From Synergistales bacterium (GTDB taxonomy: Bacteria; Synergistota; Synergistia; Synergistales; JAFGMB01), in the NCBI GenBank assembly GCA_963666205.1, contig OY762654.1, positions 960,001 to 1,024,000 on the forward strand: 64,000 bases of DNA, read 5' to 3'. This document shows, piece by piece, positions 31,039 to 35,771 of this stretch. A program made the translations under genes and the position numbers. The stretch's first letter is position 1. Each line of letters opens with the position of its first letter. The notes under the pieces are model-generated. The model had not been told where the DNA came from and made no database searches. It saw only the letters and a list, made by a program, of their open reading frames with translations.

Positions 31039-32214
31039 ATGAAAAAGCTCACGTCCAGAGATCCCCTTTTTAAAATTGCCCTTGTTTCCCTTGGACATTT
31101 TATAAACGACAGTCACGGAAATTTTCTTTCAGTGTTCCTTCCTTCAATAGTAGGGAGGCTGGGACTGTCCCTTACCCAGGCTGGATTTCTGTCTTCCATA
31201 CCAGGAATAATGCACATCCTTGCGCAGCCGATCCTCGGCTACCTGTCGGACAGGACATCCAGCTCATACATGATCATAATCGGCCCATTTATTACAGCAC
31301 TTGGAGCATCGCTGCTGCCCGGGGCAGCCAATTATCCCCTGGCCCTGCTGTTCGTGGCTCTATGGGGACTGGGAAGTGCAACTTTTCATCCCCAGGCTAA
31401 TGGTGCCATAGGCTATCTGGGCGGAACTGAAGGCCTTGCCTTCAACCTCTCTCTCTTTTCCCTTGCCGGGATGCTTGGCTTCACCATAAGCCCCATATAC
31501 GCCATTTCCCTGTATAAGGCTCTTGGAACGGTACTTATGCCCGTGGTTACAATTATCCCCGTATGTATTACGGCCCTGCTCTTTTACAGATTTGTGCCTG
31601 TCATCAAGGACCCCGGGAACTATCCCGATTCTCCTGACAGAAATATTATCAGGGCCCTTCATAACGTCCTGAAAAAGATCATTCGTGTGTGGGCTCTATC
31701 CTATGCCAGAGACGTCACTCTGCAGGGATTCAAGTTCCTCCTTCCCCTCCTTATTGCATCAAGGGGAGGCGGGATCGAAAAGATCGGGTCAATCCTTTTT
31801 GCAATTACCCTTTCTTCAGCAGTTATGCCCCTGGCTGCGGGCAGACTGTCCCTTAAGATAGACAAGACAAAACTGACCCTCATATGCATAGGTGCCGCTC
31901 CATTCTTCCTCATTCCGGCAGTTATGACCAGCGGTTTTGTTTCTCTGTTACTTCTGATGGCCGGCAACGGGCTTCTCGAAGCTACAAATCCTCTGACTAC
32001 AGCCTGTGCCCAGGATCTGGCTCCAGGATCAAGGAGTATAGCCAGTTCTCTTATTATGGGTCTCTGCTGGGGGCTCGGCGGACTGACAGTAGCACTGATA
32101 GGGCTTGCTGCGGATATTTTCGGGATAACTCATACCATGATAGGAGTATCCCTTCTGCCCCTCATACCCTTCCCCTATTATCTCAAAGGAGCAATAGCCT
32201 CCCTCAGAAAGTAA
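31039..32214 (+). CDS. MFS transporter (Fsr-like), tandem paralogue of the upstream gene
   Basis: GHFIND, QPILGYLSD, GSATFHP and AQDLAP motifs. Confidence 0.88.
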   Translation: MKKLTSRDPLFKIALVSLGHFINDSHGNFLSVFLPSIVGRLGLSLTQAGFLSSIPGIMHILAQPILGYLSDRTSSSYMIIIGPFITALGASLLPGAANYPLALLFVALWGLGSATFHPQANGAIGYLGGTEGLAFNLSLFSLAGMLGFTISPIYAISLYKALGTVLMPVVTIIPVCITALLFYRFVPVIKDPGNYPDSPDRNIIRALHNVLKKIIRVWALSYARDVTLQGFKFLLPLLIASRGGGIEKIGSILFAITLSSAVMPLAAGRLSLKIDKTKLTLICIGAAPFFLIPAVMTSGFVSLLLLMAGNGLLEATNPLTTACAQDLAPGSRSIASSLIMGLCWGLGGLTVALIGLAADIFGITHTMIGVSLLPLIPFPYYLKGAIASLRK

Positions 32215-32250
32215 GAGAAAGAGAGGAACGGGGCAGAACCTCTCTTTCTC
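32215..32250. terminator. Hairpin between the MFS pair and the convergent small ORF
   Basis: GAGAAAGAGAGG / CCTCTCTTTCTC inverted repeat; T tail weak. Confidence 0.6.
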
Positions 32251-32321
32251 CTGGAGACGATCAAAATTTGGGGGATTGACCGTTCACATCTTGATTAGCA
32301 GAAAATGGATCAGGATAAAAC

Positions 32322-32549
32322 CTACCTGTAGCCCTCGAAGGGACCTCTCCAGCGAACTTTTCCAAGATCAAAGGAATCAAACTGTTCATAGGAATCTCTT
32401 GATGGATCAGATTCTTCAACAAAAGATCTTGACGGATTAAATCGGCCTGCGGGTTTCCATTCGGATTTCATAATTATCTCCCCTTCCGGAAATATGGATT
32501 CCTTCCACAAAAACACTTTTCCCCTGTTCCCGACACTCTTAAACAGCAT
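32322..32549 (-). CDS. Small hypothetical protein (75 aa, or 49 aa from ATG 32471) downstream of the attenuator
   Basis: SD AGGAG before ATG 32549 and GGGGAG before ATG 32471; no recognised domain. Confidence 0.5.
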   Translation of the reverse strand: MLFKSVGNRGKVFLWKESIFPEGEIIMKSEWKPAGRFNPSRSFVEESDPSRDSYEQFDSFDLGKVRWRGPFEGYR

Positions 32550-32564
32550 CTGTACTCCTGCAGC

Positions 32565-32654
32565 AAAAAAAAAGAGCCGGAATCCTTTAAAGGATCCCGG
32601 CTCTGGCTCTACTCGTACAGCAGACTAGCTGCCGACCGACCCAGAGAGGGATCC
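32565..32654 (-). terminator. Attenuator: terminator hairpin with a mutually exclusive antiterminator
   Basis: Terminator GAGCCGGGATCCT-TTAA-AGGATTCCGGCTC + T9; leader segment GGATCCCTCTCTGG is complementary to CCAGAGCCGGGATCC overlapping the terminator 5' arm. Confidence 0.85.
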
Positions 32655-32717
32655 GCAGATAATAATAACGACTATTAGGACTAGGTTCAGTATAGAAACC
32701 AGACTGTTCATTTTCAC
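32625..32717 (-). CDS. ilvL-like branched-chain amino acid leader peptide (30 aa, MKMNSLVSILNLVLIVVIIICGSLSGSVGS)
   Basis: SD AAGGAGG 8 nt before GTG; 15 of 30 codons are Leu/Val/Ile, nine consecutive; directly followed by the attenuator. Confidence 0.78.
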   Translation of the reverse strand: MKMNSLVSILNLVLIVVIIICGSLSGSVGS

Positions 32718-32759
32718 TTTAGATCCCTCCTTCGGTTGAATATTTTCAATATTGCTGGA

Positions 32760-32788
32760 ATTGTATAATCCTTGAGAACCATTGTCAA
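32760..32788 (-). promoter_or_regulatory. Sigma70-type promoter for the leader peptide transcript
   Basis: TTGACA-N17-TACAAT on the minus strand. Confidence 0.8.
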
Positions 32789-32897
32789 GGCTTTTGAATA
32801 AATTTTCTGACAAAAGTCCAATTTATTGTTCTAATTTCCTTTTACCGCTGATGATCATTATTTTTGACTTATCGCAAAGGTGCTATAAAATAGCATT

Positions 32898-35771
32898 ATG
32901 ATGAAAAATAAATGGTTTCCTAATGAAGAATGGTTCAACAACGACGATGGTGAAGGAGGGCAGAAATTTCCTGCAAGACCCAGGATGCCCTTCAAAGTAA
33001 GCAGGCCGGTCTGGATAATCCTGCTGATAATAGCTGCTGTGATAGTAATTCTCCCTGCATTTGCCGATTTTTACACAGAACTTTTATGGTTCAGGGCTAG
33101 AGGCCTATCACAGGTTTTCTGGAAGAGACTCCTGCCTCAATGGGTGCTTTTTGGAGCAGCCGGACTGACAGCTCTTCTGGTTTACTGGTTCAATTTCAGA
33201 AAAGCTTTCAAGAATGCCCTGACCATGGCAAGTACCGATCTCCAGAACTTTTTGGGAAGGCGTTTTCCCGTTATCGTTCTCCTTGCAGTAGCTGCCGTAA
33301 TGGCAATAGCCAACGGACTTGCAACAAGAGGACAATGGGCAATGGTCCTCCGCTTTCTGCACAGGTCTCCCTTCAATCACGCAGATCCTATCTTTGGAAA
33401 GGATGTGGGCTTTTATATATTCAGTCTTCCCTTCCTATCCTTCCTCCAGGGATGGCTTCTCAATGTGGGTATCTTATCTCTTCTCGGATGCGGAGTGATC
33501 TATTTCCTTGCCCTCATGCCACAGTTTCAGCAGCAGGGGAAGATTCCCGTACCAAGAAAACTCCAGTTCCATCTCACCCTGGTGGGTTCTGTCATAATTT
33601 CTCTATGGGCGGCCGGTTACTGGATACAGAGGTATTACCTCCTCTACTCTCCCAGAGGTGTCGCTTTCGGAGCCAGTTACACTGATATCCACGCCGATCT
33701 TCTTGCCCTGAATGTAATGACCATCCTTACCCTTCTTGTGGCTCTCCTTCTTCTTTTAAGCCTTTTTCTCAAGAAGACATGGAAATTTTCTGTAGGTCTG
33801 GTGGTTGTCCTGGTTTTGACAAATGTTGTTCTCAGGGGCATCTATCCGGGACTTATTCAGAAATATGTGGTTGTGCCTAATGAATTCGGCAAGGAAATGC
33901 CCTATATAGAGCACAATATAAAAGCGACCCTGGATGCCTATAAACTTTCAGATCTGGAAACAGAAATGATAGTACCCGATGACCAGGTTGAGGTGGAACA
34001 GATAAACAGCAACTTCGACACCATCCATAACATCCGCCTTTGGGACTATCGGCCTCTTACAAGAACATACAAGCAGCTCCAGGAGATCCGCTCCTATTAT
34101 GATTTCCCCGATGTTGATATCGACAGGTACACTTTCGGAGATGAATACAGACAGGTCATTCTTGCAGCAAGGGAACTGGATCTCAAGGGTCTTCAGAATC
34201 CCACATGGGTCAATACCCACCTTGAATTCACCCATGGATACGGCATCGTGATGAACCCTGTAAACGAGGTAAGCCCCAGCGGTCTTCCCGTACTGTGGGT
34301 GAAGGACATACCACCGAATCTTTCCGTTCCGCTGGAACTGAACAGACCGGAGATCTATTATGGTGAAAAGGCCAGCACATATCTTTTCGTCAATACCACT
34401 GTAAAGGAATTCGACTATCCCATGGGCGAATCGAATGCCCGGACAACCTATGCCGGAAAGGGAGGCGTATCAATAGGCTCTCTTTTCAGAAGGCTTCTCT
34501 TTACTCTCAGTTTCGGCGATTCCAGGATCCTTTTCACTAATGTGTTTACCCCTGAAAGCAAGGTCATGTACCATATGAACATAAGAGAAAGGCTGCAGCA
34601 TGTCGCCCCCTTCCTTATGTACGACAGCGATCCCTACCTGGCAGTCATAAACGGAAGACTTGTCTGGATAATGGATGCATACAGTATTTCCGATCGTTAT
34701 CCCTATTCAGAACCTGTGTCCATAGCAGGAAATAATTCCACAGAATACGGCAGGATCAACTACATCCGCAACAGCGTCAAGGCAACAGTGGACGCCTACG
34801 ATGGTGATATGCATTTCTATATTGCAGATAAAACGGATCCCCTGATAAAAACATGGTCAGATATTTTCCCGGGGCTGTTCTCTCCCCTTGAAAAGATGCC
34901 TCCTGTCATGAAGGATCACCTGCGGTATCCCAAGGGACTCTTCGGAGTTCAGAGTGAGATCTACAGGACCTATCACATGACGGACCCAAACACCTTCTAC
35001 AACAAGGAAGATGTATGGGAGGTAATAAGCCAGGGAGATCGCCAGGATCGACTTGATGCCTATTACATGATAATGAGGCTGGCAGGAGAAGAGAAGGCGG
35101 AGTTTGTCCTTATTGCTCCCTTCATGCCCGTAGGAAGGGATAACATGATAGCATGGATGGCCGGCAGATCTGACGGAGAGAATTATGGTCAGCTCCTGGT
35201 CTACCGTTTCCCGAAACAGAAACTTATCTATGGACCATCCCAGATAGAGGCCCTGACCGACCAGAACCCGGAAATTTCCGCCCAGCTTTCTTTATGGAGT
35301 CAGCGGGGATCGGATGTAATAAGGGGGCACCTGCTGGTCATACCCATCGAGAACTCCCTCCTGTATGTTCAGCCCCTGTACCTGAGAGCTGAAACCAGTG
35401 ATCTGCCCGAACTCAAGAGGGTAATAGTTTCCACGGGAGGCAGGGTGGTCTGGGATACGACCCTGGATAAAGCCCTTGTTAAACTGATGGGACAGCAATA
35501 CCAGACAGGTGAAGAAAGAATATCGAGGACTGAAGTCACTCCTTCCTCTACCTATACAGGAGAAGAAGATATTTCCCGGCTTGCTGCCCAGGCACAGAAA
35601 TACTGGCAGACTTCACAGGAAGCCCTTAAAAATGCAGACTGGGAAACCTACGGCAGGGAAATGGCAAAACTGGAAAATGTGATCAGGAAGATGGCTGCTT
35701 TATCATCCATACCAGTGGATTCCGATAAGGATAAGGTCCCTGTCTCAATTGATCAGGAAATAACCCGCTAG
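32898..35771 (+). CDS. UPF0182 family membrane protein
   Basis: DPIFGKDVGFYIF, GASYTD, NIRLWD, DVDIDRY, HLEFTHGYG, NYIRNSVK and YVQPLY motifs. Confidence 0.93.
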   Translation: MMKNKWFPNEEWFNNDDGEGGQKFPARPRMPFKVSRPVWIILLIIAAVIVILPAFADFYTELLWFRARGLSQVFWKRLLPQWVLFGAAGLTALLVYWFNFRKAFKNALTMASTDLQNFLGRRFPVIVLLAVAAVMAIANGLATRGQWAMVLRFLHRSPFNHADPIFGKDVGFYIFSLPFLSFLQGWLLNVGILSLLGCGVIYFLALMPQFQQQGKIPVPRKLQFHLTLVGSVIISLWAAGYWIQRYYLLYSPRGVAFGASYTDIHADLLALNVMTILTLLVALLLLLSLFLKKTWKFSVGLVVVLVLTNVVLRGIYPGLIQKYVVVPNEFGKEMPYIEHNIKATLDAYKLSDLETEMIVPDDQVEVEQINSNFDTIHNIRLWDYRPLTRTYKQLQEIRSYYDFPDVDIDRYTFGDEYRQVILAARELDLKGLQNPTWVNTHLEFTHGYGIVMNPVNEVSPSGLPVLWVKDIPPNLSVPLELNRPEIYYGEKASTYLFVNTTVKEFDYPMGESNARTTYAGKGGVSIGSLFRRLLFTLSFGDSRILFTNVFTPESKVMYHMNIRERLQHVAPFLMYDSDPYLAVINGRLVWIMDAYSISDRYPYSEPVSIAGNNSTEYGRINYIRNSVKATVDAYDGDMHFYIADKTDPLIKTWSDIFPGLFSPLEKMPPVMKDHLRYPKGLFGVQSEIYRTYHMTDPNTFYNKEDVWEVISQGDRQDRLDAYYMIMRLAGEEKAEFVLIAPFMPVGRDNMIAWMAGRSDGENYGQLLVYRFPKQKLIYGPSQIEALTDQNPEISAQLSLWSQRGSDVIRGHLLVIPIENSLLYVQPLYLRAETSDLPELKRVIVSTGGRVVWDTTLDKALVKLMGQQYQTGEERISRTEVTPSSTYTGEEDISRLAAQAQKYWQTSQEALKNADWETYGREMAKLENVIRKMAALSSIPVDSDKDKVPVSIDQEITR

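Follow-up and report, generated by a model that had tools for sequence, protein, structure and literature searches.

A probable leader-peptide attenuator with Leu, Val and Ile control codons ahead of a conserved small protein in Synergistales

A 64,000-nucleotide stretch of contig OY762654.1 from a Synergistales bacterium (assembly GCA_963666205.1, forward-strand positions 960,001 to 1,024,000; hereafter the window) carries on its minus strand a short unit made of a promoter, a leader open reading frame (ORF1) rich in codons for leucine, valine and isoleucine (Leu, Val and Ile), an intrinsic terminator and a second small reading frame, ORF2. Judged from its sequence, this element is probably a ribosome-mediated (leader-peptide) transcription attenuator that drives ORF2 under shortage of Leu, Val and Ile. 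An earlier note on this DNA had recognized the layout of such an attenuator, and the leader ORF, the codon run, the terminator, an antiterminator exclusive with it and an appropriately placed leader stop codon are all found here and are supported by homologues. The element has four segments with alternative 1:2, 2:3 and 3:4 pairings; we describe it as four-segmented because segment 2 can pair with the Shine-Dalgarno (SD) sequence of ORF1 as well as with segment 3. In the direction of transcription the unit consists of the following features:

32788-32760, minus strand: sigma-70-type promoter, TTGACA (32788-32783), 17-nucleotide (nt) spacer and TACAAT (32765-32760), matching the consensus at 11 of 12 positions
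32753-32731, minus strand: 5' untranslated leader carrying an AATATT(G/C) motif, with transcription presumably starting at about 32753
32730-32725, minus strand: SD sequence GGAGGG of the leader ORF, identified by sequence
32730-32722, minus strand: segment 1, the leader ORF's SD region (GGAGGGAUC), which can pair with segment 2 and does so in the minimum free energy (MFE) fold
32717-32625, minus strand: leader ORF (ORF1), VKMNSLVSILNLVLIVVIIICGSLSGSVGS, 30 codons from a GTG start at 32717 to a TAG stop at 32627-32625
32702-32658, minus strand: control codons 6-20, L V S I L N L V L I V V I I I, 13 of 15 of them Leu, Val or Ile, ending ATT ATT ATC
32654-32641, minus strand: segment 2, GGAUCCCUCUCUGG, codons 22-26, which can pair either with segment 1 (the SD) or with segment 3
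32639-32613, minus strand: hairpin P2 around the leader stop codon (TAG, 32627-32625), found by folding
32606-32592, minus strand: segment 3, CCAGAG-CC-GGGAUCC, the 3' strand of the antiterminator, which overlaps the 5' arm of the terminator; from pairing and covariation
32604-32565, minus strand: intrinsic terminator (segments 3:4), with a 14-bp stem at 32604-32573 that has 8 G-C pairs and a 4-nt loop UUAA, followed by nine U
32471-32322, minus strand: ORF2, a 49-residue hydrophilic protein ending WRGPFEGYR, with the SD GGGGAG upstream, starting 94 bases past the T-run
32252-32213, minus strand: 14-bp hairpin with a weak U tract after ORF2, the probable end of the unit, which extends into a convergent MFS gene at its 3' end and was missed by the terminator scan

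The earlier note was accurate in its account of the minus-strand parts: the TTGACA-17-TACAAT promoter, the strong SD and the 30-codon ORF are present where it placed them, the 13 Leu, Val or Ile codons among codons 6-20 include nine in succession (CTA GTC CTA ATA GTC GTT ATT ATT ATC), and the GC-rich terminator stem has nine T behind it. The ORF1 peptide itself has a basic N-terminus followed by about 16-20 hydrophobic residues. The unit is flanked on one side by a divergent UPF0182 gene and on the other by the 3' end of the MFS gene, and, as the earlier note had said of a closed unit with one small target, ORF2 is the sole ORF between the terminator and the MFS gene.

Alternative pairings and their conservation

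That GGATCCCTCTCTGG (32654-32641) pairs with CCAGAG-CC-GGGATCC (32606-32592), overlapping the terminator 5' arm, had already been seen in the earlier note, and the antiterminator so formed has 7 + 6 bp (13 bp) around a 1x2 internal loop. The piece that runs from segment 2 to segment 3 folds on its own with -37.2 kcal/mol, compared with -25.4 kcal/mol for the terminator, and in a nascent RNA that ends at segment 3 the MFE fold is the 2:3 antiterminator with P2 inside it (-49.5 kcal/mol). The whole leader reaches -76.1 kcal/mol (z = -5.6; more stable than 200 of 200 shuffled sequences). A second possible partner for segment 2 is the SD of the leader itself (GGAGGGAUC). This pairing is present in the full-transcript MFE fold and absent from the earlier note; the 1:2 duplex is worth -22.2 kcal/mol in the window and -13.0 to -22.2 kcal/mol across the 19 homologues tested.

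Homologues were collected by a DNA search of 40 relatives with the whole unit, by an exact pattern search across 261 genomes of the order, and by a scan with the conserved tail of ORF2 in one genome per species. Among the 40 relatives, a genome of the same genus holds the unit at 92% identity with all attenuator parts intact, and genomes of other families of the order give matches of about 72% that cover the terminator and the latter half of ORF1. The pattern search gave further copies and the tail scan added 12 loci, all in Synergistales (an Acetomicrobium metagenome-assembled genome, Thermovirgaceae, Synergistaceae and others), and a second ORF1-ORF2 unit lies in the window's own genome, outside the window. 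The subtype with mixed Ile, Leu and Val (ILV) leaders thereby comprises 20 loci in eight genera and five families, and all 20 have the same order of parts: a TTGACA-17-TAnAAT promoter, SD, leader, segment 2, stop-codon hairpin, segment 3, terminator and T-run, then ORF2. T1 to A6 of TTGACA are invariant in an alignment of 19 extracted homologous units. Every one of the 20 cassette leaders has 27-34 codons with a basic start, a Leu/Val/Ile-rich stretch and (counted by eye) at least two consecutive Ile, and the downstream ORF of 37-54 codons begins roughly 40-150 nt behind the terminator.

The earlier note had staked its reading on conservation of the antiterminator in homologues, and the pairing is kept. 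Across the 20 aligned sequences the outer 2:3 helix, seven pairs long, has standard pairs in 140 of 140 cells, with A-U replaced by G-C in 7 sequences at one position and C-G by U-A in 2 at another; when five more elements from the window's own genome are included (25 sequences), 174 of 175 cells pair. None of 500 shuffles reaches the pairing or the covariation score of this helix, and sliding the partner strand by one column lowers pairing to 71% of cells or fewer; since the aligned sequences are mutually related, such shuffle counts overstate independence, and more weight attaches to the double changes seen in separate clades. The inner 2:3 helix has 4-7 contiguous pairs in 20 of 20 sequences, and in one clade CCUGG:CCAGG has become CCCGG:CCGGG, a compensatory change. 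In the terminator 97.5% of cells pair and 5 pairs have changed on both sides. Segment 3 occurs as GGGAUCC, GGAACCC or GGGGCCCCC, and segments 2 and 4 both change alongside it; this is what mutually exclusive 2:3 and 3:4 pairings predict.

The position of the leader stop codon is conserved as well. In 25 of 25 elements tested the stop falls inside a hairpin that folds at -4 kcal/mol or below, and it lies 13-16 nt past segment 2 in 24 of these and 9 nt past it in the remaining one, so that, with the usual ribosome footprint, a ribosome terminating there would cover segment 2.

Two other readings of ORF1 were considered and set aside. It does not behave as a lipoprotein, in that Cys occupies the lipobox position in 9 of the 20 cassette leaders, with Ser in 7 and Trp in 4, and a membrane-insertion monitor of the SecM/MifM kind is hard to reconcile with peptides of 27-34 residues, which would stay inside the exit tunnel until termination. 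Pfam and NCBIfam gave nothing above cut-off for ORF1. The earlier note's comparison of the peptide with E. coli IlvL stands for composition but not for family membership: the peptide reaches 13.9 bits (E = 0.041) with the Pfam model PF08046 (IlvGEDA_leader), whose cut-off is 25. No Rfam leader family was among the 11 sub-threshold, chance-level matches returned in 31500-33500 at a permissive threshold.

Some observations concern the promoter region. The sequence CAATATTG...AATATTC lies at 32753-32736 (-), right behind the -10 box, and AATAT(T/C) recurs after the -10 box in the aligned ORF2 cassettes and not in the ilv leaders; the motif may serve as an operator or as a signal in the initial transcript. 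On the plus strand, a divergent promoter-like site at 32864-32891, TTGACT-16-TAAAAT, stands 7 nt ahead of the UPF0182 gene start, back to back with the attenuator promoter. The consensus scan that was used for promoters is crude, and found 4 promoter-like sites around the unit against 2.1 +/- 1.6 expected from shuffles.

A shared 3' module ahead of amino acid operons

Related elements in the window's own genome were located by way of the ilvC locus, a scan that combined a regular expression with folding, the gap upstream of leuC, and a covariance model of the 3' module; BLAST of the window element against its own genome did not retrieve them. At least 12 elements there share the 3' module and differ in their leaders, and in 7 of the 12 the leader fits the genes behind it, as identified with NCBIfam.

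The genome has ilvC and ilvD, and two tandem elements lie directly upstream of its ilv operon, with the leader VKGTSFIKIQHINVIIIAIIISCGSLPGAFVGC and a near-identical twin, each containing 9-10 Ile; behind them come genes for a small ACT protein, for ketol-acid reductoisomerase (546 bits) and for both subunits of acetolactate synthase, the large one at 726 bits. A Leu leader (LLGLL; ..NLLGLLDHCGSPPRSCR) precedes LeuC, LeuD, a LeuB-like protein (below cut-off) and LeuA. A Val leader (AVVVVVDV; ..FAVVVVVDVLSC..) precedes PanB, IlvE and a binding protein of branched-chain type (below cut-off), and a Phe leader (FFSFFF; ..SSFFSFFFSCGSPPG..) precedes a binding-protein-like ORF, DAHP synthase, AroA, AroE, AroC, AroK/B and AroQ. 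Three further elements with mixed or aromatic-rich leaders are followed by an aminotransferase-like gene and membrane proteins, and in one more the leader is Tyr-rich and no sizeable ORF follows.

The same pattern extends beyond this genome. Three other genomes, from three other families, were inspected: in two of them (G030 and G017) ILV-mixed leaders much like the window's precede the small subunit of acetolactate synthase, with ketol-acid reductoisomerase next in G030. A LeuA-like protein stands behind a Leu leader and AMP-binding enzymes behind aromatic ones, and in genome G061 (loci L067 and L069) a TTTTTMTT leader stands before homoserine dehydrogenase and an MMMCMC leader before an ABC_tran+NIL ATPase. 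To judge from these leaders, the class appears also to sense Met and Thr. With E <= 1e-6, the covariance model matches 106 of 151 Synergistales genomes and 44 of 51 genera, and a single genome has as many as 18 matches, counts that include 25 training sequences which match by construction; it gave no match in any of the 19 genomes of one genus.

T-boxes offer another way of controlling such genes, and the window's genome has 6 T-box matches, 3 of them above cut-off. The first ORFs behind the six are not at the ilvC or ilvD positions, and by their N-termini they resemble arg, thr, thrS, lys and asd genes rather than ilv or leu genes.

The ilv and leu loci deserve some further description. The tandem Ile-rich attenuators occupy G000:C1:2316526-2316871 (L045 764-1109), and the second has its own SD, with no separate promoter evident; passing two successive terminators would make the response sharper. 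Between ilvB and ilvN, at G000:C1:2320046-2320150, is a degenerate copy of the module (34 bits; leader MEGISNVNGVNRLVLLILNCWFPSGAIVDG) with no clear terminator T-run, which may be a decayed internal attenuator. The leuCDBA element (G000:C1:1189440-1189610; L050 207-306) has its own promoter and the Leu leader ..NLLGLLDHCGSPPRSCR, and it comes directly after a hydratase-like gene of 267 residues, itself preceded by the second ORF1-ORF2 cassette, so that the cassette adjoins the leu unit without being part of it. The order of cassette, hydratase-like gene and leu genes, at least as far as leuD, is repeated in three other genomes.

ORF2, the small protein behind the leader

An ORF ending (W/F)RGPFEGYR stands behind the attenuator in 20 of 20 loci. 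In the first nine ORF2 homologues the nine C-terminal residues are invariant and the remainder varies, and across genomes the invariant tail is encoded by differing synonymous codons, which indicates that selection acts on the ORF2 protein. An alternative reading of 75 codons from 32549 is probably too long on sequence grounds; when compared with the same-genus genome, its additional 26 N-terminal residues are far less conserved than the 49-residue part. The consensus scan found no promoter-like site between the terminator and ORF2.

An exhaustive profile search with ORF2 among 1.84 billion representative proteins found just 12 relatives, all of 37-69 residues, and a word-based protein search gave 2 matches, both near-identical. 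With 18 sequences, AlphaFold2 returned a mean predicted local distance difference test score (pLDDT) of 59 and no secondary structure, the tail being the best-scored part at 74; the protein is thus predicted to be disordered. Its homologues contain 9.3% Leu, Val and Ile, compared with 24.7% in the genome's long ORFs, a composition that suits a protein made during branched-chain starvation. We infer that ORF2 works in trans, as a mini-protein whose tail docks onto a partner.

Three of the homologues (P0008, P0010 and P0012; 65-69 residues) have an internal copy of the WRGPFEG motif in addition to the C-terminal one, and the doubled motif looks like a bivalent short linear motif. In some cassettes (L026, L027 and L019) two different ORF2 paralogues stand in tandem, one type with an M.KMEKW start and FEMF and the other with an MK.EW start; the window has only the second type, and the other cassette of its genome only the first. 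After ORF2 in one locus of genome G030 (L013 1200-1262) there is a perfect 10-bp inverted repeat, CCCTCCAGCG...CGCTGGAGGG, whose 3' arm holds the SD of the following AddB-like nuclease gene.

Mechanism, rival explanations and significance

The arrangement suggests the following course of events. A strong promoter would drive synthesis of a short leader RNA, and where charged Leu, Val and Ile tRNAs are plentiful the ribosome would cross segment 2 to reach the stop inside P2, segments 3 and 4 would pair and transcription would end at the T-run. If no ribosome had loaded, segments 1 and 2 would pair, and termination would follow likewise. A ribosome stalled in the Leu/Val/Ile run (between codon 6 and about codon 16 or 17) would leave segment 2 free while segment 3 is made, so that the 2:3 antiterminator could form and RNA polymerase could read into ORF2. 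The protein would thus be made when branched-chain amino acids are short, and would act in trans via its docked tail. The stalling, the read-through response and the action of ORF2 are the parts of this scheme that are deduced from the layout.

A mechanism of this type is familiar from the trp and ilv leader peptides, as summarised in the account in PMC9413887. The element shares with the enterobacterial attenuators (trp, ilvGMEDA, ilvBN, leu, his, thr and pheA) a leader ORF with a run of the sensed codons, four segments, an intrinsic terminator and a stop codon placed to block the antiterminator. It has no sequence relationship to them, as the Pfam and Rfam results show, and differs in that segment 1 is the leader's own SD, in that a conserved 3' module which includes the last leader codons is common to the elements of the genome and, in the window copy, in that the target is a 49-residue protein instead of a biosynthetic operon. 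The Corynebacterium ilvBNC attenuator and the Staphylococcus aureus leucine-rich attenuator peptide (PMC10272879, PMC11857589 and PMC5794164) likewise combine a short leader ORF rich in branched-chain codons with a terminator ahead of ilv genes. They are single-locus elements before biosynthetic genes and are not known to form a multi-copy set of swapped codons or to have a small-protein target. The nearest published item is the unexplained motif 'PBC-10'. By its description, this motif of Stav et al. 2019 (PMC6429828, Table S1c), with 58 examples in Synergistia upstream of acetohydroxyacid synthase, is probably the ilv member of the present class; the table entry lists it as a protein-binding candidate rather than a leader-peptide attenuator and mentions no ORF2-type target. 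The upstream-ORF attenuator candidates described by Brewer et al. 2021 (PMC8632094) are, in the part of that work considered here, unrelated and from other phyla. Full-text searches of a library that excludes subscription journals gave no paper on leader-peptide attenuation in Synergistetes and no account of the present class as an attenuator.

Some transcript data bear on the unit. Contigs from metatranscriptome libraries of two studies cover ORF2 (32312-32551 and 32334-32570), and one RNA-library contig (32448-32634) spans the termination site; as these are assembled contigs that show neither ends nor levels, from libraries that may contain DNA, they give a weak hint that read-through RNA exists. 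None of the RNA-library contigs covers 32635-32900, the 5' part of the leader, and contigs X1 and X3 have ends at 32551 and 32570; since hairpins can interrupt assembly, neither the gap nor these ends are taken as evidence.

Several points weigh against the proposed attenuator and its starvation response. The equilibrium folds of the complete leader always favour SD:segment 2 plus the terminator, whichever stretch is masked, and the masked fold that the earlier note had offered as a check, which mimics a stalled ribosome, accordingly failed to switch to the antiterminator; the mask still lets the SD pair across, and such a fold is silent on co-transcriptional folding. Because 1:2 plus 3:4 always wins in the whole leader, the decision to antiterminate must be kinetic, as it is in classical attenuators. 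The last three Ile codons are just 3-9 nt upstream of segment 2, and a ribosome of usual footprint that stalled on them would partly cover that segment. A hydrophobic 30-residue peptide, taken alone, fits a membrane peptide equally well. ORF2 has no known family (nothing above cut-off in Pfam and NCBIfam, and no match at 0.9 or above in the ESM Atlas), and its low Leu, Val and Ile content is equally typical of any disordered protein. The genes after it vary by locus and give no clue to its role: they encode an AddB-like nuclease, sulphur-transport proteins, a flavin adenine dinucleotide (FAD) oxidoreductase or a hydratase-like protein with the separately led leu operon behind it, or there are none. 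The genes behind the same-module ilv, leu, panB-ilvE and aro elements, and behind elements in other genomes, belong to the metabolism of the amino acid sensed, and no such link is evident for the window's ORF2.

The attenuator could be real and yet answer to a signal other than Leu, Val and Ile, such as a general slowing of translation, pausing at Pro-Pro-Gly on segment 2 that depends on elongation factor P (EF-P), or stalling induced by a drug, of the kind known from the leaders of resistance genes; we regard this as unlikely. Pro-Pro-Gly is a strong pause motif and, by reading of the leaders, falls exactly on segment 2 in 17 of 25 of them, where a pause could hold the ribosome on that segment; moreover, ORF2 has no evident branched-chain link and the control run mixes three amino acids. 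The window's own leader, however, has Leu-Ser-Gly in place of Pro-Pro-Gly, with a matching change in segment 3, so that Pro-Pro-Gly is not essential, and CCUCC is also demanded by the pairing with the SD. The run-to-pathway specificity of the same-module elements likewise speaks for the control codons. The supply of Leu, Val and Ile is most likely the sensed signal, because the ILV-mixed leader type precedes ilvN-type genes in the two other genomes, with ilvC behind in G030.

The earlier note had left a choice between a new branched-chain starvation response module and a regulatory relic, and we prefer the former. A relic would be an ilv- or leu-type attenuator whose operon was deleted or moved, with ORF2 as a chance frame; such a history would account for the lone ORF2 before the MFS gene and for ilv and leu operons that lie elsewhere in the genome with leaders of their own. 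It is nevertheless very unlikely: the unit is not a relic because ORF2 is conserved behind this leader type at every one of the 20 loci in eight genera and five families. Its tail is invariant as protein over differing synonymous codons, the profile search yields the 12 small homologues and nothing else, the motif is repeated in three homologues and RNA-library contigs lie over ORF2, and the attenuator parts are intact in the 92% identical copy of the same-genus genome.

It is similarly improbable that ORF1 is a small membrane peptide or type I toxin silenced by sequestration of its SD, with ORF2 an unrelated or antitoxin-like neighbour. The basic N-terminus and the hydrophobic stretch would suit such a peptide, as would a full-length RNA in which the SD pairs with a 3' coding segment (many type I toxin mRNAs sequester their SD by pairing) and a unit that ends at its own terminator. 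We reject a toxin since the same scaffold carries leaders that are not membrane-like but polar or aromatic (for example VKCNISTVVYSFNLLGLLDHCGSPPRSCR and VKKNSSYSNSYYFYYWFSGGDSPEVVGV), most same-module elements directly precede biosynthetic operons whose pathway their runs match, and the crude promoter scan found no antisense promoter-like site in 32560-32760, the plus-strand sites being at 32864 and 32991, outside the unit. In addition, one cassette leader has Pro in the middle of its hydrophobic run, and covariation with the terminator arm would be useless to a toxin mRNA.

Finally, ORF2 is scarcely likely to be a cis-acting arrest peptide whose invariant residues stall the ribosome to regulate downstream genes: although its N-terminus is variable, the nine invariant residues come right before the stop and, in one locus group, the 10-bp inverted repeat over the SD of the AddB-like gene follows it (by eye), the downstream genes differ by locus, the window has none on that strand, three homologues hold the motif internally too and some loci have two tandem ORF2 paralogues.

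Returning to the Leu, Val and Ile attenuator, a broader interpretation can be offered tentatively, with a little less than an even chance of being right. Synergistales may use one modular attenuator, repeated within each genome, as a general amino acid sensor, and its Leu/Val/Ile version may have been recruited to a disordered mini-protein, a trans-acting starvation effector that docks by its WRGPFEGYR tail. The constant 3' module would consist of the anti-SD codons '(C/S)-G-S-P-P-G', the stop-codon hairpin, the antiterminator strand and the terminator, and only the control codons (Ile, Leu, Val, Phe/Tyr/Trp, Met or Thr) would be swapped. Such a class has something in common with the T-box, in which one conserved RNA scaffold is reused before many amino acid genes and few nucleotides set the specificity, but T-boxes bind uncharged tRNA directly and without a leader ORF, whereas here translated codons give the specificity.

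The mechanism is a classical one, and leader-peptide attenuation itself is textbook knowledge; what appears to be undescribed is the order-wide constant 3' module, an SD that doubles as segment 1, and a Leu/Val/Ile version that has been recruited to control a conserved mini-protein. If these interpretations are correct, the Synergistota, little-studied fermenters of amino acids, would gain a phylum-specific regulatory system that forms a ribosome-based counterpart of the T-box, and leader codons could reveal specificity and so help to annotate transporters and enzymes of unknown substrate. Attenuators would then evolve as a repeated set with a common expression platform and a partly shared leader peptide, not independently for each operon, and ORF2 would be a candidate new starvation effector, whose sole known property is its control by an attenuator that senses Leu, Val and Ile.

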